Shown piece after piece: positions 12,561-62,200 of a stretch of 64,000 nucleotides of DNA. The DNA comes from Eledone cirrhosa. Taxonomy: Eukaryota. Position numbers and translations under genes: made by a program. Numbering within the stretch: position 1 is the stretch's first letter; the number at the start of each line of letters is the position of its first letter. Below the pieces are notes generated by a model. The model did not search any database. It was not told where the DNA came from and worked only from the letters and a program-made list of their open reading frames with translations. Location of the stretch: the NCBI GenBank assembly GCA_964016885.1, contig OZ024759.1:7006001-7070000 (forward strand), read 5' to 3'.

Positions 12561-13074
12561 GACACTCCCTGAAACATAAGTATTACATGTGTAAAGTTTG
12601 AAAACAGTCGGTTGGGTGTTTCTCGAGTTTTAGGGATTCAAACTCGCACACACACAGACAGACATCCTCAGTTTTATATATATAGATGACCTGTTAACGA
12701 CTACAAAAGCGGGCGGAAATTACCGAAGTCGTTGTTTATGATTTACATAGTAAGCTATGTACCTAAGACGAAGGTGGGCTGTAAATAAAATAAGAATAAG
12801 AAAAAATAGTAATAATAAGTTAACCACAATATACAGTTGTACTTATGTACCATAATTATAAATCGTTATTATAACCACATAAGTTTGGTTGGCTGGACAC
12901 ATACATGAGTGCATATATACATACACACGCATACACATAGCTACATTACATACATATAAATACATATACATTCACACACATAGATGAGTGCATACATACA
13001 TACACACGCATAAACATATGTACATATACATACATAGAAATACATATACTTTTACACACATACAAGAGTGCATA

Positions 13075-13899
13075 CATACATATGATGACATATATACATA
13101 CATATGATGACATATATACATACATATGATGACATATATACATGCATATGATGACATATATACATGCATATGATGACATATATACATGCATATGATGACA
13201 TATATACATACATATGATGACATATATACATACATATGATGACATATATACATACATATGATGACATATATACATACATATGATGACATATATACATACA
13301 TATGATGACATATATACATACATATGATGACATATATACATACATATGATGACATATATACATACATATGATGACATATATACATACATATGATGACATA
13401 CATACATATGATGACATATATACATGCATATGATGACATATATACATACATATGATGACATATATACATGCATATGATGACATATATACATGCATATGAT
13501 GACATATATACATACATATGATGACATATATACATACATATGATGACATATATACATACATATGATGACATATATACATGCATATGATGACATATATACA
13601 TACATATGATGACATATATACATACATATGATGACATATATACATACATATGATGACATATATACATGCATATGATGACATATATACATACATATGATGA
13701 CATATATACATACATATGATGACATATATACATACATATGATGACATATATACATACATATGATGACATATATACATGCATATGATGACATATATACATA
13801 CATATGATGACATATATACATACATATGATGACATATATACATACATATGATGACATATATACATGCATATGATGACATATATACATGCATATGATGAT
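13075..13899. repeat. 22-bp minisatellite (TATGATGACATATATACATRCA), about 37 copies
   Basis: Direct reading; abuts the RTE 3' end. Confidence 0.95.
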
Positions 13900-18767: not shown

Positions 18768-21081
<2,314 letters not shown>

Positions 21082-21316
21082 TAAACAATTAAGTTAAAGA
21101 TGTACATCCATATCATATATGTATACTGAAATACTAGTATGTATATGAATACACACACGTATACATATGTAGATGTACCAAGTTTTTTTTTCACTGGTCA
21201 CTTTACTGTGAGTGGCCAGCTATTCTGTATGTAAACACACAGACAAACCGGTTTTTAGAGTCATACTGGTTTTTGAGGAAACACCTTTCCTCTATTCTCC
21301 AGAAAGCCAGACAAGG

Positions 21317-21361
21317 AATATTGAACTAGTTTCGTTGTTGTTACAACTCATCAGCAATATT
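21317..21361 (-). ncRNA. Type I hammerhead ribozyme, left-arm array copy (also 21787-21831 and 22257-22301)
   Basis: Exact reverse complement of the right-arm motif; the third copy has only a stem II loop change. Confidence 0.9.
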
Positions 21362-22707
21362 TACCTATCTTCCGGCCTCTCTAGAGAATCGTAAAAGCAC
21401 ATATCGTTATATGCTTTTTCTATGAAAATTAGTAGTGGGCAGACTAATTTGCATAGAGTGTGAGTAAGTACCGGTTCAACGGAGACGATAAAAACAAATA
21501 ACGAAACGAAATTAAATTTCGTTTCGTTTGTAACTCACTTTTGTATGACTGACGCTTAAACAATTAAGTTAAAGATGTACATCCATATATGTATACTGAA
21601 ATACTAGTATGTATATGAATACACACACGTATACATATGTAGATGTACCAAGTTTTTTTTTCACTGGTCACTTTACTGTGAGTGGCCAGCTATTCTGTAT
21701 GTAAACACACAGACAAACCGGTTTTTAGAGTCATACTGGTTTTTGAGGAAACACCTTTCCTCTATTCTCCAGAAAGCCAGACAAGGAATATTGAACTAGT
21801 TTCGTTGTTGTTACAACTCATCAGCAATATTTACCTATCTTCCGGCCTCTCTAGAGAATCGTAAAAGTACATATCGTTATATGCTTTTTCTATGAAAATT
21901 AGTAGTGGGCAGACTAATTTGCATAGAGTGTGAGTAAGTACCGGTTCAACGGAGACGATAAAAACAAATAACGAAACGAAATTAAATTTCGTTTTGTTTG
22001 TAACTCACTTTTGTATGACTGACGCTTAAACAATTAAGTTAAAGATGTACATCCATATATGTATACTGAAATACTAGTATGTATATGAATACACACACGT
22101 ATACATATGTAGATGTACCAAGTTTTTTTTTCACTGGTCACTTTACTGTGAGTGGCCAGCTATTCTGTATGTAAACACACAGACAAACCGGTTTTTAGAG
22201 TCATACTGGTTTTTGAGGAAACACCTTTCCTCTATTCTCCAGAAAGCCAGACAAGGAATATTGAACTAGTTTCGTTGTGGTTACAACTCATCAGCAATAT
22301 TTACCTATCTTCCGGCCTCTCTAGAGAATCGTAAAAGCACATATCGTTATATGCTTTTTCTATGAAAATTAGTAGTGGGCAGACTAATTTGCATAGAGTG
22401 TGAGTAAGTACCGGTTCAACGGAGACGATAAAAACAAATAACGAAACTAAATTAAATTTCGTTTCGTTTGTAACTCACTTTTGTATGACTGACGCTTAAA
22501 CAATTAAGTTAAAGATGTACATCCATATATGTATACTGAAATACTAGTATGTATATGAATACACACACGTATACATATGTAGATGTACCAAGTTTTTTTT
22601 TCACTGGTCACTTTACTGTAATTAGTCTGCCCACTACTAATTTTCATAGAAAAAGCATATAACGATATGTGCTTTTACGATTCTCTAGAGAGGCCGGAAG
22701 ATAGGTA

Positions 22708-22752
22708 AATATTGCTGATGAGTTGTAACAACAACGAAACTAGTTCAATATT
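22708..22752 (+). ncRNA. Type I hammerhead ribozyme, representative array copy (other + copies start at 23178, 23648, 24091, 24560, 25030, 25499, 25969, 26439, 26909, 27379, 27849)
   Basis: Stem I AAUAUUG/CAAUAUU, core CUGAUGA and GAAA, stem II GUUGU/ACAAC, palindromic CUAG stem III; predicted cut after GUU at 22745. Confidence 0.9.
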
Positions 22753-25700
22753 CCTTGTCTGGCTTTCTGGAGAATAGAGGAAAGGTGTTTCCTCAAAAAC
22801 CAGTATGACTCTAAAAACCGGTTTGTCTGTGTGTTTACATACAGAATAGCTGGCCACTCACAGTAAAGTGACCAGTGAAAAAAAAACTTGGTACATCTAC
22901 ATATGTATACGTGTGTGTATTCATATACATACTAGTATTTCAGTATACATATATGGATGTACATCTTTAACTTAATTGTTTAAGCGTCAGTCATACAAAA
23001 GTGAGTTACAAACGAAACGAAATTTAATTTCGTTTCGTTATTTGTTTTTATCGTCTCCGTTGAACCGGTACTTACTCACACTCTATGCAAATTAGTCTGC
23101 CCACTACTAATTTTCATAGAAAAAGCAAATAACGATATGTGCTTTTACGATTCTCTAGAGAGGCCGGAAGATAGGTAAATATTGCTGATGAGTTGTAACA
23201 ACAACGGAACTAGTTCAATATTCCTTGTCTGGCTTTCTGGAGAATAGAGGAAAGGTGTTTCCTCAAAAACCAGTATGACTCTAAAAACCGGTTTGTCTGT
23301 GTGTTTACATACAGAATAGCTGGCCACTCACAGTAAAGTGACCAGTGAAAAAAAAACTTGGTACATCTACATATGTATACGTGTGTGTATTCATATACAT
23401 ACTAGTATTTCAGTATACATATATGGATGTACATCTTTAACTTAATTGTTTAAGCGTCAGTCATACAAAAGTGAGTTACAAACGAAACGAAATTTAATTT
23501 CGTTTCGTTATTTGTTTTTATCGTCTCCGTTGAACCGGTACTTACTCACACTCTATGCAAATTAGTCTGCCCACTACTAATTTTCATAGAAAAAGCATAT
23601 AACGATATGTGCTTTTACGATTCTCTAGAGAGGCCGGAAGATAGGTAAATATTGCTGATGAGTTGTAACAACAACGAAACTAGTTCAATATTCCTTGTCT
23701 GGCTTTCTGGAGAATAGAGGAAAGGTGTTTCCTCAAAAACCAGTATGACTCTAAAAACCGGTTTGTCTGTGTGTTTACATACAGAATAGCTGGCCACTCA
23801 CAGTAAAGTGACCAGTGAAAAAAAAACTTGGTACATCTACATATGTATACGTGTGTGTATTCATATACATACTAGTATTTCAGTATACATATATGGATGT
23901 ACATCTTTAACTTAATTGTTTAAGCGTCAGTCATACAAAAGTGAGTTACAAACGAAACGAAATTTAATTTCGTTTCGTTATTTGTTTTTATCGTCTCCGT
24001 TGAACCGGTACTTACTCACACTCTATGCAAATTAAAAGCATATAACGATATGTGCTTTTACGATTCTCTAGAGAGGCCGGAAGATAGGTAAATATTGCTG
24101 ATGAGTTGTAACAACAACGAAACTAGTTCAATATTCCTTGTCTGGCTTTCTGGAGAATAGAGGAAAGGTGTTTCCTCAAAAACCAGTATGACTCTAAAAA
24201 CCGGTTTGTCTGTGTGTTTACATACAGAATAGCTGGCCACTCACAGTAAAGTGACCAGTGAAAAAAAACTTGGTACATCTACATATGTATACGTGTGTGT
24301 ATTCATATACATACTAGTATTTCAGTATACATATATGGATGTACATCTTTAACTTAATTGTTTAAGCGTCAGTCATACAAAAGTGAGTTACAAACGAAAC
24401 GAAATTTAATTTCGTTTCGTTATTTGTTTTTATCGTCTCCGTTGAACCGGTACTTACTCACACTCTATGCAAATTAGTCTGCCCACTACTAATTTTCATA
24501 GAAAAAGCATATAACGATATGTGCTTTTACGATTCTCTAGAGAGGCCGGAAGATAGGTAAATATTGCTGATGAGTTGTAACAACAACGAAACTAGTTCAA
24601 TATTCCTTGTCTGGCTTTCTGGAGAATAGAGGAAAGGTGTTTCCTCAAAAACCAGTATGACTCTAAAAACCGGTTTGTCTGTGTGTTTACATACAGAATA
24701 GCTGGCCACTCACAGTAAAGTGACCAGTGAAAAAAAAACTTGGTACATCTACATATGTATACGTGTGTGTATTCATATACATACTAGTATTTCAGTATAC
24801 ATATATGGATGTACATCTTTAACTTAATTGTTTAAGCGTCAGTCATACAAAAGTGAGTTACAAACGAAACGAAATTTAATTTCGTTTCGTTATTTGTTTT
24901 TATCGTCTCCGTTGAACCGGTACTTACTCACACTCTATGCAAATTAGTCTGCCCACTACTAATTTTCATAGAAAAAGCATATAACGATATGTGCTTTTAC
25001 GATTCTCTAGAGAGGCCGGAAGATAGGTAAATATTGCTGATGAGTTGTAACAACAACGAAACTAGTTCAATATTCCTTGTCTGGCTTTCTGGAGAATAGA
25101 GGAAAGGTGTTTCCTCAAAAACCAGTATGACTCTAAAAACCGGTTTGTCTGTGTGTTTACATACAGAATAGCTGGCCACTCACAGTAAAGTGACCAGTGA
25201 AAAAAAACTTGGTACATCTACATATGTATACGTGTGTGTATTCATATACATACTAGTATTTCAGTATACATATATGGATGTACATCTTTAACTTAATTGT
25301 TTAAGCGTCAGTCATACAAAAGTGAGTTACAAACGAAACGAAATTTAATTTCGTTTCGTTATTTGTTTTTATCGTCTCCGTTGAACCGGTACTTACTCAC
25401 ACTCTATGCAAATTAGTCTGCCCACTACTAATTTTCATAGAAAAAGCATATAACGATATGTGCTTTTACGATTCTCTAGAGAGGCCGGAAGATAGGTAAA
25501 TATTGCTGATGAGTTGTAACAACAACGAAACTAGTTCAATATTCCTTGTCTGGCTTTCTGGAGAATAGAGGAAAGGTGTTTCCTCAAAAACCAGTATGAC
25601 TCTAAAAACCGGTTTGTCTGTGTGTTTACATACAGAATAGCTGGCCACTCACAGTAAAGTGACCAGTGAAAAAAAAACTTGGTACATCTACATATGTATA

Positions 25701-28184
25701 CGTGTGTGTATTCATATACATACTAGTATTTCAGTATACATATATGGATGTACATCTTTAACTTAATTGTTTAAGCGTCAGTCATACAAAAGTGAGTTAC
25801 AAACGAAACGAAATTTAATTTCGTTTCGTTATTTGTTTTTATCGTCTCCGTTGAACCGGTACTTACTCACACTCTATGCAAATTAGTCTGCCCACTACTA
25901 ATTTTCATAGAAAAAGCATATAACGATATGTGCTTTTACGATTCTCTAGAGAGGCCGGAAGATAGGTAAATATTGCTGATGAGTTGTAACAACAACGAAA
26001 CTAGTTCAATATTCCTTGTCTGGCTTTCTGGAGAATAGAGGAAAGGTGTTTCCTCAAAAACCAGTATGACTCTAAAAACCGGTTTGTCTGTGTGTTTACA
26101 TACAGAATAGCTGGCCACTCACAGTAAAGTGACCAGTGAAAAAAAAACTTGGTACATCTACATATGTATACGTGTGTGTATTCATATACATACTAGTATT
26201 TCAGTATACATATATGGATGTACATCTTTAACTTAATTGTTTAAGCGTCAGTCATACAAAAGTGAGTTACAAACGAAACGAAATTTAATTTCGTTTCGTT
26301 ATTTGTTTTTATCGTCTCCGTTGAACCGGTACTTACTCACACTCTATGCAAATTAGTCTGCCCACTACTAATTTTCATAGAAAAAGCATATAACGATATG
26401 TGCTTTTACGATTCTCTAGAGAGGCCGGAAGATAGGTAAATATTGCTGATGAGTTGTAACAACAACGAAACTAGTTCAATATTCCTTGTCTGGCTTTCTG
26501 GAGAATAGAGGAAAGGTGTTTCCTCAAAAACCAGTATGACTCTAAAAACCGGTTTGTCTGTGTGTTTACATACAGAATAGCTGGCCACTCACAGTAAAGT
26601 GACCAGTGAAAAAAAAACTTGGTACATCTACATATGTATACGTGTGTGTATTCATATACATACTAGTATTTCAGTATACATATATGGATGTACATCTTTA
26701 ACTTAATTGTTTAAGCGTCAGTCATACAAAAGTGAGTTACAAACGAAACGAAATTTAATTTCGTTTCGTTATTTGTTTTTATCGTCTCCGTTGAACCGGT
26801 ACTTACTCACACTCTATGCAAATTAGTCTGCCCACTACTAATTTTCATAGAAAAAGCATATAACGATATGTGCTTTTACGATTCTCTAGAGAGGCCGGAA
26901 GATAGGTAAATATTGCTGATGAGTTGTAACAACAACGAAACTAGTTCAATATTCCTTGTCTGGCTTTCTGGAGAATAGAGGAAAGGTGTTTCCTCAAAAA
27001 CCAGTATGACTCTAAAAACCGGTTTGTCTGTGTGTTTACATACAGAATAGCTGGCCACTCACAGTAAAGTGACCAGTGAAAAAAAAACTTGGTACATCTA
27101 CATATGTATACGTGTGTGTATTCATATACATACTAGTATTTCAGTATACATATATGGATGTACATCTTTAACTTAATTGTTTAAGCGTCAGTCATACAAA
27201 AGTGAGTTACAAACGAAACGAAATTTAATTTCGTTTCGTTATTTGTTTTTATCGTCTCCGTTGAACCGGTACTTACTCACACTCTATGCAAATTAGTCTG
27301 CCCACTACTAATTTTCATAGAAAAAGCATATAACGATATGTGCTTTTACGATTCTCTAGAGAGGCCGGAAGATAGGTAAATATTGCTGATGAGTTGTAAC
27401 AACAACGAAACTAGTTCAATATTCCTTGTCTGGCTTTCTGGAGAATAGAGGAAAGGTGTTTCCTCAAAAACCAGTATGACTCTAAAAACCGGTTTGTCTG
27501 TGTGTTTACATACAGAATAGCTGGCCACTCACAGTAAAGTGACCAGTGAAAAAAAAACTTGGTACATCTACATATGTATACGTGTGTGTATTCATATACA
27601 TACTAGTATTTCAGTATACATATATGGATGTACATCTTTAACTTAATTGTTTAAGCGTCAGTCATACAAAAGTGAGTTACAAACGAAACGAAATTTAATT
27701 TCGTTTCGTTATTTGTTTTTATCGTCTCCGTTGAACCGGTACTTACTCACACTCTATGCAAATTAGTCTGCCCACTACTAATTTTCATAGAAAAAGCATA
27801 TAACGATATGTGCTTTTACGATTCTCTAGAGAGGCCGGAAGATAGGTAAATATTGCTGATGAGTTGTAACAACAACGAAACTAGTTCAATATTCCTTGTC
27901 TGGCTTTCTGGAGAATAGAGGAAAGGTGTTTCCTCAAAAACCAGTATGACTCTAAAAACCGGTTTGTCTGTGTGTTTACATACAGAATAGCTGGCCACTC
28001 ACAGTAAAGTGACCAGTGAAAAAAAACTTGGTACATCTACATATGTATACGTGTGTGTATTCATATACATACTAGTATTTCAGTATACATATATGGATGT
28101 ACATCTTTAACTTAATTGTTTAAGCGTCAGTCATACAAAAGTGAGTTACAAACGAAACGAAATTTAATTTCGTTTCGTTATTTG

Positions 28185-28566
<382 letters not shown>

Positions 28567-28586
28567 TGTATATGTATATATATATG

Positions 28587-28717
<131 letters not shown>

Positions 28718-28742
28718 GTGTATATATATATATATGTATATA

Positions 28743-28779
<37 letters not shown>

Positions 28780-28854
28780 ATATATATATATATGTATATA
28801 TATATGTATATATATATATATGTGTATATATATATGTATATATATATATATGTG

Positions 28855-29062
<208 letters not shown>

Positions 29063-29193
29063 TATGGATGTATATATAATGTATTTTGCAATACACTTTA
29101 TGCTTAATTAAAAGCATTTTGAAGACCGTAAGCTATTGTTTTTTAGAGTAGTGACAAATTCACTTACTTTGATCTCAGCAAACAGGGGAGATA

Positions 29194-29238
29194 AGCCGAC
29201 AAGGCCTTGTTTTGCTTTTGTTGAAGCTTATCAAGGCT
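29194..29238 (-). ncRNA. Hammerhead-like fold, family B, U3-A8 plus A12 core
   Basis: AGCC UUGAUAA GCUU-CAACAA-AAGC AAAA C AAGGCCUU GUC GGCU. Confidence 0.6.
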
Positions 29239-29453
29239 AACTACTCCCACCTGTCTACCGAGATCACTAATGTTATATTCTTATGGAATTCTAGTAAATA
29301 ATCAGGAGCTGATTATGCTGATTAGCTAGAATTTGTCACTACTCTAAAAAACAATAGCTTACGGTCTTCAAAATGCTTTTAATTAAGCATAAAGTGTATT
29401 GCAAAATACATTATATATACATCCATATATATATTGCTATTTCAGAGCTCCAA

Positions 29454-29497
<44 letters not shown>

Positions 29498-29540
29498 TAA
29501 CAGATTAAAGTTTAAGCAAAGAATCGCTGCTTTCACCCTG

Positions 29541-29672
<132 letters not shown>

Positions 29673-29680
29673 CATATATG

Positions 29681-29793
<113 letters not shown>

Positions 29794-29798
29794 GTATA

Positions 29799-29853
<55 letters not shown>

Positions 29854-29864
29854 GTATATATATG

Positions 29865-29929
<65 letters not shown>

Positions 29930-30098
29930 CGAAGGAAATGTGGTAAGGAACCAGGTGGTCCATAACGCACCAAAGTACTCAATACTTGAGGTAGTAGAGT
30001 GGGTAATAGGAACCAGTAAGACCCCGACAGCTGAGCTCAAGCCGTTTCGAATTAGCCGTCGAAACGGCTTGAGCTCAGCTGTCGGGGTCTTACTGGTT

Positions 30099-30139
<41 letters not shown>

Positions 30140-30193
30140 TATATATGTATATATATATATGTATGTATATATATATATGTATATATATATATG

Positions 30194-30374
<181 letters not shown>

Positions 30375-30375
30375 G

Positions 30376-30458
<83 letters not shown>

Positions 30459-30473
30459 GTATATATATATATG

Positions 30474-30544
<71 letters not shown>

Positions 30545-30693
30545 GTATATATATGTATATATATATATATATGTATTAATAAGAGGAATTCCAACTTTGT
30601 CTGATTTATTCGTTTTATTTACAATCCTTTAAAATATATATAATGGTATTATAATGAAATAGTATGATAGAATATTAGATTCTAAGTGTTAAT

Positions 30694-30732
30694 TGAACAA
30701 GTACTTTCATGCTTTCGCAATCTTCAGGTTCA
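30694..30732 (-). ncRNA. Minimal hammerhead in Penelope pLTR
   Basis: UGAAC CUGAAGA U-UGC-GAAA-GCA-U GAAA GUAC UU GUUCA; perfect 5-bp stem I, palindromic stem III. Confidence 0.85.
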
Positions 30733-32030
30733 TGATATGTGGTGACAGTCGAGTTTGCAATTTTCAACTGCAATGAGATGGGTAAATTTCCTACCTTTTA
30801 ATACATTTTATACAGAGAAAAGTGGCTCCAGAATGCAAAGCCCTGTAAACTGTATTTCGACCAATCAGTGTGTAGTTTCACTGAATTACTACAGCTGATT
30901 GGTTTAAGCGTCACGGCTGGTTGAGCATGCTAACGACCAATAGTCATATCCAACGTATCAATTGTTTTGCTTCTTTTGAAATGATGAAAATAGTATTTTC
31001 TATTAATCATCACCATCAACATCACTTTTATTATTATTATTATTATTGTTGTTGTTGTTGTTGTTAGTGGTCGTGGTCATAGTGGTAGTAGAAGTAATAC
31101 CCCTAGGCGTTATTATTATTCATTTAGCTTGGGTTTGAATTTATCAATAAAATTCTTTTCTTTGATTTTTCTCTTGATTTCACTTGGGCTGTGTAATTTG
31201 TAGAATGGGAATATTATAAATATTCCCTGACCACATGTTGCCAGGTGGCCGCTTAAGAGTATCTGACGGACATTTGGGTCTCTGATTTGTTGACGGTGTA
31301 CCCGTGCACGTTCCGATAGTGCATTTCCAGTTTGACCGACATATAGTTCTTCACAATTCGGGCATTTAATGCAGTAAATTAGATTTCTGCTTTTGCAGTT
31401 CATATTTGCATTTGGGAATATTTTTCCAGTTTTTGTTTTCATATATTGACTGGCGTGTATGGATTGACATGTGCCGCATCGATTATCATTGCATTTAGAT
31501 ACAGTGAATGATTGGTCTTTGTTGTTAAGGTCAAACTTTGCTTTTGTTAGCAATTGCTTCAAATTTTTTGGCTGTCTTTTACTAAGAGTCAAAGATCGAT
31601 CTGTGATTAAGCCTTTTAATTCATTACTTTGAGCAATGATCGGTAGGTTTGCTTTGGCAGTGTTGAAGATATTCTGGTGACATGGGTTGTGTGTCATTAT
31701 AAATGGTATGACCAGTTCTTGGTTTCTTCTTCCTTGGGTTGTCCTAAGTTGTATAGGTATTTTTATAGCCCGCTCTATGCCATTTTCTATAAGTAGAGAT
31801 GGGTATTTTTGTTTGAGCAAAAATTCTCTTAGTTCTGTTATAATCGATGCGGCACTGATAATCGATGCGGCACATGTCAATCCATACACGCCGGTCAATA
31901 TATGAAAACAAAAACTGGAAAAATATTCACAAATGCAAATATGAACTGCAAAAGCAGAAATATAAAAGGTAGGAAATTTACCCATCTCATTACAGTTGAA
32001 AATTGCAAACTCGACTGTCACCACATATCA

Positions 32031-32069
32031 TGAACCTGAAGATTGCGAAAGCATGAAAGTACTTGTTCA
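32031..32069 (+). ncRNA. Minimal hammerhead in the inverted Penelope pLTR
   Basis: Same motif as 30694-30732 on the opposite strand. Confidence 0.85.
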
Positions 32070-32297
32070 ATTAACACTTAGAATTTAATATTCTATCATA
32101 CTATTTCATTATAATACCATTATATATATTTTAAAGGATTGTAAATAAAACGAGTAAATCAGACAAAGTTGGAATTCCTCTTATTAATATAATCTTCTAT
32201 ACACAATCATACACACCCGTGTATATTTACCTATCTATATCTATATATATATGTATATATATATATATGTATATATATATATGTATATATATATATG

Positions 32298-49082: not shown

Positions 49083-52000
49083 AGACTTTGGGAATAAACC
49101 CTGAGGATTAATCCAGACCCAGAGTCCCTACGGCAACCTTGTTCTTGCAACACCTGCCATGCCACCAGTGCCAAATTGTACTGGCCTCTGTCCTTCCCTG
49201 GTGGTGCCACATGAGCAACTGCTGATCTCCCATAAATCAATGCGCAGTCCCTCCAACGTCGCCTCACATTGGCGGCAAAACACAGAAAGCATCAATCTAC
49301 CAGTTATAAGTCTGCACATGATTGGCGTCTGAGCAAGGTATCAAGGGCTGCTTTCGATGCAGGGAGAGGCCATTGTGCTTCACTAGACAGCTACCACCTG
49401 CCTAAAGCTGGGCAGCCCCCAACCAGTTAGGTGCTGTCCCGTCACAGCCCAAGTACTCCAGTGGGTGTGTGGGGCCTAATATACTGAACCTTGGGCTGTA
49501 AACACTGCAATAAGAAAATCAATGAACAAACAATGTAAGAAACTGGTAGTGAGACTTGGATGTTGGAATATAAGGACCCTGACTACTGGTCAACACACTG
49601 ACCCTGACTCCTGGTCAACACACTGACCCTGACTCCTGGTCAACACGCTGACCCTGACTCCTGGTCAACACGCTGACCCTGACTACTGGTCAACACACTG
49701 ACCCTGACTACTGGTCAACACACTGACCCTGACTCCTGGTCAACACGCTGACCCTGACTCCTGGTCAACACACTGACCCTGACTCCTGGTCAACACACTG
49801 ACCCTGACTACTGGTCAACACACTGACCCTGACTCCTGGTCAACACACTGACCCTGACTACTGGTCAACACACTGACCCTGACTACTAGTCAACACACTG
49901 ACCCTGACTACTGGTCAACACACTGACCCTGACTCCTGGTCAACACACTGACCCTGACTACTGGTCAACACACTGACCCTGACTACTAGTCAACACACTG
50001 ACCCTGACTACTGGTCAACACACTGACCCTGACTCCTGGTCAACACACTGACCCTGACTCCTGGTCAACACACTGACCCTGACTCCTGGTCAACACGCTG
50101 ACCCTGACTACTGGTCAACACACTGACCCTGACTACTGGTCAACACACTGACCCTGACTACTAGTCAACACACTGACCCTGACTACTGGTCAACACACTG
50201 ACCCTGACTCCTGGTCAACACGCTGACCCTGACTCCTGGTCAACACGCTGACCCTGACTACTGGTCAACACACTGACCCTGACTCCTGGTCAACACGCTG
50301 ACCCTGACTCCTGGTCAACACGCTGACCCTGACTCCTGGTCAACACGCTGACCCTGACTCCTGGTCAACACGCTGACCCTGACTACTGGTCAACACGCTG
50401 ACCCTGACTCCTGGTCAACACACTGACCCTGACTCCTGGTCAACACGCTGACCCTGACTCCTGGTCAACACGCTGACCCTGACTCCTGGTCAACACGCTG
50501 ACCCTGACTCCTGGTCAACACACTGACCCTGACTCCTGGTCAACACGCTGACCCTGACTCCTGGTCAACACACTGACCCTGACTCCTGGTCAACACGCTG
50601 ACCCTGACTCCTGGTCAACACGCTGACCCTGACTCCTGGTCAACACGCTGACCCTGACTACTGGTCAACACACTGACCCTGACTACTGGTCAACACACTG
50701 ACCCTGACTACTAGTCAACACACTGACCCTGACTACTGGTCGACACACTGACCCTGACTACTGGTCAACACACTGACCCTGACTACTAGTCAACACACTG
50801 ACCCTGACTACTGGTCAACACACTGACCCTGACTACTGGTCAACACACTGACCCTGACTACTGGTCAACACACTGACACTGACTACTGGTCGACACACTG
50901 ACCCTGACTACTGGTCAACACACTGACCCTGACTACTGGTCGACACACTGACCCTGACTACTGGTCGACACACTGACCCTGACTACTGGTCAACACACTG
51001 ACCCTGACTCCTGGTCAACACACTGACCCTGACTCCTGGTCAACACGCTGACCCTGACTCCTGGTCAACACACTGACCCTGACTACTGGTCAACACACTG
51101 ACCCTGACTCCTGGTCAACACGCTGACCCTGACTCCTGGTCAACACGCTGACCCTGACTCCTGGTCAACACACTGACCCTGACTCCTGGTCAACACACTG
51201 ACCCTGACTCCTGGTCAACACGCTGACCCTGACTCCTGGTCAACACGCTGACCCTGACTACTGGTCAACACACTGACCCTGACTACTGGTCAACACACTG
51301 ACCCTGACTACTAGTCTGTCAGAGGATCAGCAACACCTGCAAAACAGCAGACATCAACAATGAACTGCTATGACTTTGAGGGGACATTGCAGTGCTGCAG
51401 GAGACATGGCTCCCAGATCTGGGGGCCCTTCGTGTGATAGAGGAACGGCATAGATGAAGCCAGAGAGCATGGTGTCGGATTACCGTTAGAAACTCACTGT
51501 TGAGTATGGTAGGACTTGGTAGTGACGGGATCCTCTCACTCTAAGTGCACACTTCGGATGGGTCTGTCAGCCTTGTCCGTGCTTATGCCCTAACCCTCTA
51601 TTCCACACAAGATGACAAGGATATGTTTTACCATCAGCCCTCCAGAAAAATACAGGTGATCCCAATTGGTGAACAGCTGGTGCTGCTTGGCGACTTCAAT
51701 GCCAGAGTGGGAGCTGACCACAACTCCTGGACAGGGTGTCTGGGACGTGAATGACAATGAACAAAGACTGCTTGAGCTCTGTATGTTCCATGAACTATGT
51801 GTCACCGACACCTACTTTCAGGCCAAATCTCAGCACAAATTTTCTTGGTGTCATCCTCACTCAGGGCCCTGGCACCAGTTAGATCTGATCCTCAGAAGAC
51901 ACAACCACCTGATAATGTACTCCTGACTCGATCCTTTCACTGCTGACTGTGACACAGATCACTCCCTCGTTTGCTGCAATCACAAAACTCTAATTAAAAA

Positions 52001-55149: not shown

Positions 55150-55175
55150 GTGAGTCTTTCAAAGTCGACATTGGG

Positions 55176-56120
55176 GTATTTAGCATCTTAGACTAGCTCT
55201 ACAATGTGTACCTGTGTATTTAGCACCCTAGACTAGCTCTACAATGTGTACCTGTGTATTTAGCACCCTAGACTAGCTCTACAATGTGTACCTGGGTATT
55301 TAACACCCTAGACTAGCTCTACAATGTGTACCTGTGTATTTAGCACCCTAGACTAGCTCTACAATGTGTACCTGGGTATTTAACACCCTAGAATAGCTCT
55401 ACAATGTGTACCTGGGTATTTAACACCCTAGACTAGCTCTACAATGTGTACCTGGGTATTTAGCACACTAGACTAGCTCTACAATGTGTACTGGGGTATT
55501 TAACACCCTAGAATAGCTCTACAATGTGTACTGGGTATTTAGCACCCTAGACTAGCTCTACGATGTGTACTGGGGTATTTAACACCCTAGAATAGCTCTA
55601 CGATGTGTACCTGGGTATTTGGCACACTAGACTAGCTCTACAATGTGTACCTGGGTATTTAGCACCCTAGACTAGCTCTACAATGTGTACCTGGATATTT
55701 AGCACCCTAGACTAGCTCTACAATGTGTACCTGGGTATTTAGCACCCTAGACTAGCTCTACAATGTGTACCTGGATATTTAGCACCCTAGACTAGCTCTA
55801 CGATGTGTACCTGGGTATTTAGCACCCTAGACTAGCTCTACAATGTGTACTGGGTATTTAGCACACTAGACTAGCTCTACAATGTGTACCTGGATATTTA
55901 GCACACTAGACTAGCTCTACAATGTGTACCTGGGTATTTAGCACCCTAGACTAGCTCTACAATGTGTACCTGGATATTTAGCACCCTAGACTAGCTCTAC
56001 AATGTGTACCTGGATATTTAGCACCCTAGACTAGCTCTACAATGTGTACCTGGATATTTAGCACACTAGACTAGCTCTACAATGTGTACCTGGGTATTTA
56101 GCACCCTAGACTAGCTCTAC
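55176..56120. repeat. 40-bp minisatellite, about 23 copies
   Basis: Unit GTATTTAGCACCCTAGACTAGCTCTACAATGTGTACCTGG; starts 26 bp after the exon 3 donor. Confidence 0.95.
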
Positions 56121-56409: not shown

Positions 56410-57808
56410 ACCCACACACTAACACACCAATACACACACTAACACACACACCAACACACACACACCACCACACACACACCACCACACACACACCAACACA
56501 CACACACACCACCACACACAAACCAACACACACACCAACACACACACACCACCACACACACTAACACACACACCAACACACACACCAACACACACACTAA
56601 CACACACACCAACACACACACCAACACACACACCAACACACACACCAACACACACACTAACACACACACTAACACACACACCAACACACACACCAACACA
56701 CACACACCAACACACACACTAACACACACACTAACACACACACCAACACACACACCAACACACACACACCACCACACACACACTAACACACACACACCAA
56801 CACACACACCAACACACACACCAACACACACACTAACACACACACACAACAACACACACACACCAACACACACACCAACACACACACACCAACACACACA
56901 CACACTAACACACCAACACACACACTAACACACACACCAACATATACACACTAACACACACACTAACACACTCAGCAACACACACACTAACACACACACT
57001 AACATACACACACACACACATATACCAACACACACACCAACATACACACCAACACACACACCAACACACATACACAAACACACACACCAACACACATACA
57101 CAAACACACACACACACATACACCAACACACACACCAACACACACACCAACACACATACACAAACACACACACACACATACACCAACACACACACCAACA
57201 CACACACTAATACATAGACACCAACACACCCACACCAACACACATACCCACACACACACACCACACACCAACACACTCATACACCAACACACACACTAAC
57301 ACACACACCAACACACACACCAACACACACACCAACACACACACCTACAGACACACACCAACAAACACACACACTCCAACACACACCAACACACACACCA
57401 ACACAGACCAACACACACACACTAACACACACACCAACACACACACACTAACACACACACACACCAACACACCAACACACACACCTACAGACACACACCA
57501 ACAAACACACACACTCCAACACACACCAACACACACACACCAACACACACACCTACAGACACACACCAACAAACACACACACTCCAACACACACCAACAC
57601 ACACACACCAACACACACCAACACACACACACACCAACACACACCAACACACACACACCAACACACACCAACACACACACACACCAACACACACCAACAC
57701 ACACACACACCAACACACACCAACTCGCACACACCAACACACACACACCAACACACACACCAACACACACCAACACACATATACCAACACACACCAACAC
57801 ACACACTC
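56410..57808. repeat. Compound CA-rich microsatellite (CYAACACACA..)
   Basis: Direct reading. Confidence 0.9.
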
Positions 57809-59974: not shown

Positions 59975-62200
59975 CTGCCACCGTCAACCGCCACCGTCAA
60001 CCGCCACGTCAACCGCCACCGTCAACCGCCACCGTCAACCGCCACCGTCAACCGCCACCGTCAACCGCCACCGTCAACCGCCACCGTCAACCGCCACCGT
60101 TAACTACCACCGTCAACCACCACCGTCACCTACCACCGTCAACCACCACCGTCAACTACCACACCACCGTCAACCATCGCCGTCACCTACCACCGTCAAC
60201 CCCCGCCGTCAACCACCACCGTCATCCACCACCGTCAACCACCACCGTCACCTACCACCGTCAACCACCGCCGTCAACCACCACCGTCATCCACCACCGT
60301 CAACCACCACCGTCACCTACCACCGTCAACCACCACCGTCAACCACCACCGTCAACCACCACCGTCTCCTACCACCGTCACCTACCACCGTCATCCACCA
60401 CCGTCAACCACCACCGTCACCTACCACCGTCAACCACCACCGTCAACCACCCCCGTCACCTACCACCGTCACCTACCACCGTCATCCACCACCGTCAACC
60501 ACCACCGTCAACCACCACCGTCAACCACCACCGTCACCTACCACCGTCAACCACCACCGTCAACCACCACCGTCAACCACCACCGTCAACCAACACCGTC
60601 ACCTACCACCGTCAACCACCACCGTCAACCACCACCGTCAACTACCACCGTCACCTACCACCGTCAACCACCACCGTCAACCACCACCGTCACCTACCAC
60701 CGTCACCTACCACCGTCATCTACCACCGTCAACCACCACCGTCAACCACCACCGTCAACCACCACCGTCACCTACCACCGTCAACAACCACCGTCACCTA
60801 CCACCGTCAACCACCACCGTCACCTACCACCGTCAACCACCACCGTCAACCACCACCGTCAACCACCACCGTCAACAACCACCGTCACCTACCACCGTCA
60901 ACCACCACCGTCAACCACAACCGTCAACGACCAACAATAACCACCACCGTCACCTACCACCGTCACCTACCACCATCAACCACCACCGTCAACCACCACC
61001 GTCAACCACCACCGTCAACCACCACCGTCACCTACCACCGTCAACCACCACCGTCAACCACCACCGTCAACCACCACCGTCAACCACCACCGTCAACCAC
61101 CACCGTCAACCACCACCGTCAACCACCACCGTCAACCACCACCGTCACCTACCACCGTCAACCACCACCGTCAACCACCACCGTCAACCACCACCGTCAA
61201 CCAACACCGTCACCTACCACCGTCAACCACCACCGTCAACCACCACCGTCAACTACCACCGTCACCTACCACCGTCAACCACCACCGTCAACCACCACCG
61301 TCACCTACCACCGTCACCTACCACCGTCATCTACCACCGTCAACCACCACCGTCAACCACCACCGTCAACCACCACCGTCACCTACCACCGTCAACAACC
61401 ACCGTCACCTACCACCGTCAACCACCACCGTCACCTACCACCGTCAACCACCACCGTCAACCACCACCGTCAACCACCACCGTCAACAACCACCGTCACC
61501 TACCACCGTCAACCACCACCGTCAACCACAACCGTCAACGACCAACAACAACCACCACCGTCACCTACCACCGTCACCTACCACCGTCAACCACCACCGT
61601 CAACCACCACCGTCAACCACCACCGTCAACCACCACCGTCACCTACCATCGCTAACCACCACCGTCAACCACCACCGTGAACCACCACCGTGAACCACCA
61701 CCGTCACCTACCACCGTCAACCACCACCGTCAACCACTATCGTCATCACCACCGTCATCCACCACCATCAACCACCACCGTCAACCACCACCGTCAACCA
61801 CCACCGTCAACCACCACCGTCACCTACCACCGTCAACCACCACCGTCAACCACCACCGTCACCTACCACCGTCAACCACCACCGTCAACCACCACCGTCA
61901 ACCACCACCGTCAACCACCACCGTCAACCACCACCGTCAACCACTATCGTCATCACCACCGTCATCCACCACCATCAACCACCACCGTCAACCACCACCG
62001 TCAACCACCACCGTCAACCACCACCGTCACCTACCACCGTCAACCACCACCGTCAACCACCACCGTCAACCACCACCGTCAACCACCACCGTCAACCACC
62101 ACCGTCAACCACCACCGTCAACCACCACCGTCAACCACCACCGTCAACCACCACCGTCACCTACCACCGTCAACCACCACCGTCAACCACCACCACCACT
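59975..62200. repeat. 12-bp minisatellite (ACCACCGTCAMC) directly upstream of exon 4
   Basis: Direct reading; variants CCT, ATC and ACA; higher-order duplication visible. Confidence 0.95.

Follow-up and report, generated by a model that had tools for sequence, protein, structure and literature searches.

Metazoan non-LTR retrozymes have been proposed to move as RNA circles that are turned into tandem cDNA by a Penelope enzyme (Cervera and de la Pena 2020, PMC7229834). Retrozymes have since been tied to Penelope repeats by phylogeny, and in the available text of that study the arrays are explained by local amplification via unequal crossover, with cleavage found in one of the nine elements tested (Li, Clavereau and Pollet 2026, 10.64898/2026.07.22.740005). 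Penelope elements themselves are described as having inverted arms, a one-sided tail of 30–40 nt and target duplications of 8–12 nt (PMC3846280, PMC8557442). In vitro, Poseidon of Anolis cuts and extends both target strands, with two internal starts that define the tail (Frangieh et al. 2024, PMC11167929). Both the mobility of retrozymes and the origin of the inverted repeats and one-sided tail of Penelope elements are posed as open in the parts of this literature that were available.

The window, which is the whole stretch of 64,000 nucleotides that was analysed, contains two arrays with a period of 470 nt found by Tandem Repeats Finder (21082–22619, 3.3 copies, and 22620–28191, 11.9 copies). 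They are in opposite orientation to each other and are flanked by long interrupted (TA)n tracts. Unit positions are counted from the base directly downstream of the predicted GUU cut, which is position 1. The features of the array and its surroundings are as follows.

18841..21081, no strand: left part of the (TA)n target tract, an interrupted microsatellite
21082..22619, minus strand: left arm (A arm), 1,538 nt, 3.3 units, from unit position 115 round to 237
21082..21090, minus strand: site A end, unit position 237, a putative start of reverse transcription
22257..22301, minus strand: hammerhead motif of the innermost left-arm unit, a core match
22619..22620, no strand: 5'-to-5' junction of the arms, blunt, with no shared or added base
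22620..28191, plus strand: right arm (B arm), 5,572 nt, 11.9 units, from unit position 345 round to 306
22708..22752, plus strand: hammerhead motif of the first right-arm unit, type I, predicted cut at 22745/22746
28181..28191, plus strand: site B end, unit position 306, a putative start of reverse transcription
28192..30576, no strand: right part of the (TA)n target tract, with the polarity of the left part and more small insertions
30577..32244, no strand: Penelope-like neighbour outside the array, two-armed, 5'-truncated, with a GIY-YIG-end frame, 96% to locus L218

The preliminary description placed a flip of orientation at 22619/22620, and this is borne out both by Tandem Repeats Finder and by the strands of the 15 hammerhead cores, of which three precede 22620 on the minus strand and 12 follow it on the plus strand. 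The ends had been put at about 240 and 305 nt past the cut; the exact values are 237 and 306, and the 2 and 3 bases that the ends have in common with (TA)n stand as described. Site B is immediately 3' of a 13-bp hairpin, and the 5' end of the left arm, at unit position 115, is one of 15 (of 164) arm 5' ends that cluster at 108–122. The units of the window array are nearly identical: 17 pieces show a 27-nt deletion (part of a hairpin, missing from one right-arm unit, 23686–24128), a 5-nt insertion, three changes in A runs and six substitutions limited to single units.

The TA tract of the window also carries short inserts at 29050–29430, 29492–29540, 29930–30100 and 20250–20370. All of them recur, each in 8–48 of the 271 loci retrieved, one contains an inverted repeat of 77 nt without a mismatch, and they are probably the ends of other TA-targeting elements. 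Unrelated minisatellites with periods of 12–40 nt are found in the window at 13072–13898, 49575–51316, 55174–56120, 56422–57806 and 59978–62194.

The 470-nt unit is about 35% GC and non-coding. Its longest ORF, of 60 aa, is antisense, and the RT-endonuclease ORF of an autonomous Penelope-like element is absent from 21082–28191. The fold of the unit is much stronger than that of shuffled sequences (z = -8.65) and includes one predicted type I hammerhead per unit, whose stems I and II have 7 and 4 bp and whose stem III is a palindrome of 2 bp. Stem III is lengthened in the predicted dimer fold, and hammerheads with such a short stem III are reported to act as dimers (PMC4209133). Across subfamilies, stem II has a compensatory pair and the cut triplet is GUU, GUC or GUA. 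An Rfam gathering search of window positions 20000–29500 gave no match, and the 41-nt ribozyme core has 4,898 exact matches in the genome. Judged by its sequence features, which are tandem type I hammerheads, a short, low-GC, non-coding unit, dispersal and a target duplication of more than 4 bp, the repeat is a non-LTR retrozyme, and self-cleavage of its RNA is predicted.

Near-identical units are present in all four sequencing runs whose contigs were compared, and the stretch is partly present in 20 of the 24 runs listed (17 studies); no RNA run is among those listed as containing it, which counts neither for nor against expression. In runs X4, X5 and X6, from three other organisms and studies, the near-identical units may be due to close relationship, to horizontal transfer or to carry-over. 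A second retrozyme family has a 491-nt unit that is about 66% alike in part and has a GUA cut triplet; it was found at L225 (7579–10000) and L271, and also at L131, L125, L197 and L268. Its arms terminate at 276 and 335, 59 nt apart, and its B end aligns with site B.

The two-armed anatomy of the window array is the rule for the 470-nt family. We compared 126 loci, of which 27 were taken in order along one chromosome by ribozyme core, 24 came from a DNA search (the window included), 46 were picked by or next to an A end, and 29 remained from 60 short loci picked by a B end after 31 had been dropped as duplicates, edge-cut or belonging to another family. One A end and one B end were present at 96 loci, 81 of them paired by automatic calling and 15 by inspection (very short partner arm, misplaced end or longer fetch). 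The remainder consisted of one A/A, one B/B, seven with one end elsewhere, 19 with a single arm, one nested and one with no match; the 19 and the seven of the 126 count against the insertion model set out below. Among the 51 loci that were not picked by their ends there were 41 A/B, one A/A, one B/B, three with one end elsewhere and five with a single arm, and by hand calculation the excess of A/B over independent choice of ends has a p of about 1e-10.

Genome-wide, site B joined to the microsatellite occurs 2,179 times, and on such sequence matches the 470-base repeat has more than 2,000 genomic insertions. Site A gave 833 forward matches, its reverse matches being multiply counted. Ends at the cut site occurred 0 and 1 times with the patterns of two subfamilies, against the 2,179 site-B ends, which agrees with the earlier view that neither end of the array is the ribozyme cut site; other arrays likewise do not end there. 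A table of end registers across other arrays, suggested as a check in the preliminary description, gave 232, 234 and 236/237 for site A and mostly 306, with minor 300 and 302, for site B, so that the two sites are 69–74 nt apart on the unit. Slipped registers of this kind are what a primer ending in TA should produce when it shifts along a U-rich template. The 236/237 register was seen in 0/9 of the 237G haplotype and 22/83 of the others, a difference that is not significant (p=0.11).

Three other arrangements were observed among the arrays. Locus L190 (6744–9483) has four arms of two subfamilies and a tail-to-tail joint at the 13-bp hairpin before site B, and possibly represents two insertions recombined at that hairpin. 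L269–L270 is an old array in one orientation, with more than 40 diverged units and a higher-order duplication, and is a satellite-like fate of an arm. At L210 and L122 the 5' end of an arm adjoins one other repeat that also borders the Penelope copies L216 and L221, and which is possibly another element inserting into TA sites.

In targets other than pure (TA)n, the target duplication measured 12 nt at 16 of the 31 informative loci and 12–14 nt at 22 of them, and this direct duplication spans both ends of the array. Both arms of a locus share one haplotype: the median difference between arms was 0.27% within a locus versus 3.7% between loci, and the closest arm was the locus's own partner in 63 of 76 cases. 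The longer arm was A in 31 and B in 50 of 81 loci, the longest A arm has 31 units, and arm lengths correlate at 0.51 overall, a value inflated by sampling, and at 0.35 in 46 less biased loci. The predicted cut site is crossed by 64 of 81 A arms and by 64 of 81 B arms. Taken together, the 12-nt duplication, the slipped registers at U-rich sites, the independent arm lengths and the shared haplotype support two-ended internal priming. This part of the original proposal, that both ends of a break primed at internal UA sites, is supported, while the sites have turned out to be fixed, one per arm, and not free.

We consider it fairly likely that a single insertion event gave rise to the array, through a Penelope-like RT-endonuclease acting in trans, probably on circular RNA. 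The endonuclease would cut (TA)n and leave 3' overhangs of about 12 nt, both of which would pair over 1–3 bases with one RNA, the first at site A and the second at site B; the 69–74 nt between A and B may be the distance at which a protein dimer would place them. Each overhang would prime a cDNA that goes round the unit for a varying number of turns. The 3' ends of the two cDNAs would be joined by microhomology, bluntly or with short fillers, and each cDNA would be the template for the second strand of the other. Some arms grew later by local duplication. Bases have been added at 25 of 82 central junctions. In favour of the model, 23 of the 57 junctions without added bases have microhomology of at least 3 nt versus 6.6% by chance, and B arms often stop at site A (9 of 82 in 233–250, an interval picked post hoc, versus 3.1 expected, p=0.004).

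As to the template, which the preliminary description left as circular or multimeric, the evidence leans towards a circle, a reasonably probable form for this RNA. Some changes occur at one locus only and yet are fixed in as many as 24 units and through both arms, for which a one-unit bottleneck is needed, and there are arrays of 16–22 units without substitutions. In 40 young loci, 26 derived substitutions (outgroup-polarised) are fixed in all covering units. On the ribozyme strand of this young subset, which was selected after looking, the fixed changes include 11 A>G versus 1 T>C (p=0.003) and the single-unit changes 4 versus 5; over all loci the A>G bias is not significant (25 versus 20). 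Five of the 11 fixed A>G changes lie at 340–349, in one hairpin arm, and some of the fixed changes are on differing haplotype backgrounds. A>G is the signature of A-to-I RNA editing, and the fixed changes fit editing of one monomer followed by its amplification, although selection on RNA structure could be another source of the excess. In the same young loci, single-unit changes show more G>A than C>T on the ribozyme strand (18 versus 6, p=0.02), a bias that would be compatible with mistakes or deamination affecting single-stranded cDNA one unit at a time.

The alternative that survives best, and which we regard as unlikely but still of appreciable weight, is that the two-ended priming at A and B took place on a linear multimer, transcribed from a source array and left uncleaved, the long uniform arms being due to young, uniform sources and later unequal exchange. 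At 5 of 34 longer loci the two arms have in common a variant that is not fixed, at different offsets or in terminal units only; such variants point to mixed multimers, which a monomer circle does not give. Blocks of period 3, 4 and 6 inside arms are also on the side of a multimer, as are the local amplification of the model of Li et al. 2026 (10.64898/2026.07.22.740005) and the finding that unprocessed RNA is the main substrate of the anole protein (PMC11167929). It is harder to reconcile a linear multimer with the locus-private changes, with A>G changes that are fixed and not mosaic, and with the failure of any single-unit variant to recur among eight loci of one haplotype group. Nor are the 5' ends of the arms piled up at the cut site: they are scattered round the unit, with 8 of 164 at the cut site versus 7.3 expected. 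An excess of arm 5' ends at the cut site had been considered and was an artefact of unit borders that vanished with exact end calling.

Returning to two-ended priming on a circle, periodic variants confined to one arm (S56, L037, L234 and S175) imply later local duplication, and arm length is therefore not a pure count of turns. The preliminary description had read the array as about 3.3 and 11.9 turns of the template; as copy numbers these figures are right, but they need not equal the turns made at insertion.

A second alternative is that priming took place at one end only; the other arm would then come from fold-back or from antisense self-priming, and the second end would be trimmed by the endonuclease. 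Fold-back or self-priming, or endonuclease trimming, is the reading offered for inverted Penelope repeats (PMC3846280, PMC8557442), and it gains some ground here from 8 of 81 junctions that overlap by at least 10 nt at natural hairpins and 11 of 81 in which both 5' ends lie within 10 nt of each other. We nevertheless think it improbable, since fold-back can make an arm no longer than its template, whereas A was the longer arm in 31 and B in 50 of 81 loci. Unrelated positions are joined at most junctions, slipped registers like those of a primer occur at both ends, and the window junction mirrors 1 base.

The preliminary description had also raised the possibility of an assembly artefact produced by fold-back chimeric long reads, to which we give even less credence. 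The 22619/22620 junction is bridged by none of the pieces listed from the contigs of four sequencing runs, as an artefact would have it. However, mirrored sequence at the join is limited to 1 base, the TATG-interrupted microsatellite has equal polarity on both flanks (84:2 and 88:0), and the anatomy recurs at 96 of 126 loci, all of which makes such an artefact unlikely. The end registers of the two arms differ as well, and the contigs of run X1 contain six other head-to-head joints and 12 loose site-B ends in (TA)n. Least credible of all is an ordinary satellite array with a later inversion: local duplication does occur in arrays, but inversion leaves no fixed pair of outer ends with a 12-nt duplication at scores of dispersed loci, and it is refuted by the one-A-one-B rule unless the loci are copies of one event, whereas their junctions differ.

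Penelope-like elements that could supply the enzyme for two-ended priming are present in the genome. A search for GIY-YIG gave 150 scored matches among 10,597 candidates, and the GIY-YIG loci with long frames encode RT and GIY-YIG with a CX4CX2C linker, which has been ascribed to Neptune and Nematis (PMC8557442). One family in (TA)n, that of L215, has inverted arms with one end site each, about 60–68 nt apart, and the neighbour at 30577–32244 has head-to-head arms in the array's own TA tract, with ends (the tail) about 55–60 nt apart. Among 44 GIY-YIG loci there was no Penelope element with sequence common to the 470-nt unit, only retrozyme copies being matched, and the exact A–B spacing of the unit was found in no Penelope family examined in the genome. 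The local RT and GIY-YIG families have the same target and the same two-site anatomy, and they are candidate partners of the 470-nt repeat.

A wider reading can be put forward tentatively. A dimeric Penelope enzyme would bind, at two fixed sites, a single circular retrozyme RNA that had undergone A-to-I editing, and from the 12-nt overhangs of a staggered cut it would run two rolling-circle reverse transcriptions, each insertion being a clonal two-armed record of a single circle. The same two-primer step might explain the inverted repeat, the one-sided tail and the second-strand synthesis of all endonuclease-bearing Penelope elements. With the one-A-one-B rule, the 12-nt stagger, the shared haplotype and the fixed A>G changes, two standing hypotheses become exact predictions, and the family offers thousands of young insertions with testable rules, namely two starts, one per arm, a 12-nt stagger and one haplotype. 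For rolling-circle target-primed reverse transcription in vitro, the RNA, the start nucleotides and candidate enzymes, from the L215, L217 and L218 families, can be named. The arrays suggest that nature has an enzyme able to write several kilobases of DNA starting at the two sides of a break and, if the reading is true, the fixed A>G changes would preserve in the genome a record that the mobile RNA itself had been edited.

In L1 twin priming, both target ends prime on one RNA, the inverted 5' part is joined by microhomology, the position of the second primer is variable, and the arms are adjacent and non-overlapping. Unlike this, both sites of the array are fixed and both arms repeat the same sequence many times. 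The array resembles metazoan retrozymes in its non-coding tandem unit of less than 50% GC, a type I hammerhead in each unit, thousands of copies, a strongly self-paired fold, a target duplication of more than 4 bp and the presence of Penelope elements in the genome (PMC7229834, 10.64898/2026.07.22.740005), and its unit of 470 nt is slightly above the range of 150–450 nt given in PMC7229834. The available text of these retrozyme papers describes tandem arrays only, whereas inverted arms, fixed internal ends and paired starts are found here; in PMC7229834, as far as its available text goes, the copying of circles was proposed without insertion-level evidence. Inverted arms are not mentioned in the available text of PMC8490949, and two-armed retrozyme arrays with paired fixed starts were not found in a literature search whose coverage lay outside subscription journals and supplements.

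With endonuclease-bearing Penelope elements that have the Neptune/Nematis-type linker, the array has in common a head-to-head 5'-truncated arm, a tail at one end, a target duplication (8–12 nt in those elements) and a preference for (TA)n (PMC3846280, PMC8557442). It differs from the Penelope elements described in these sources in that it has no ORF, a tail of 69–74 nt and two multi-unit arms, and its data favour two-ended priming over the self-priming or trimming suggested there. Poseidon shares with the array an AT-rich target and two internal starts, and a dimer is predicted for it (PMC11167929). The starts of Poseidon are described in the available text without a difference between strands or homology to the target, whereas the array has one site per arm and 1–3 shared bases, and the template of the array, unlike Poseidon's, is non-coding and repeated. 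The parts of this arrangement are thus known separately, with inverted arms, tail and two starts all familiar from Penelope elements, and their use in a retrozyme array was not found in the literature covered.
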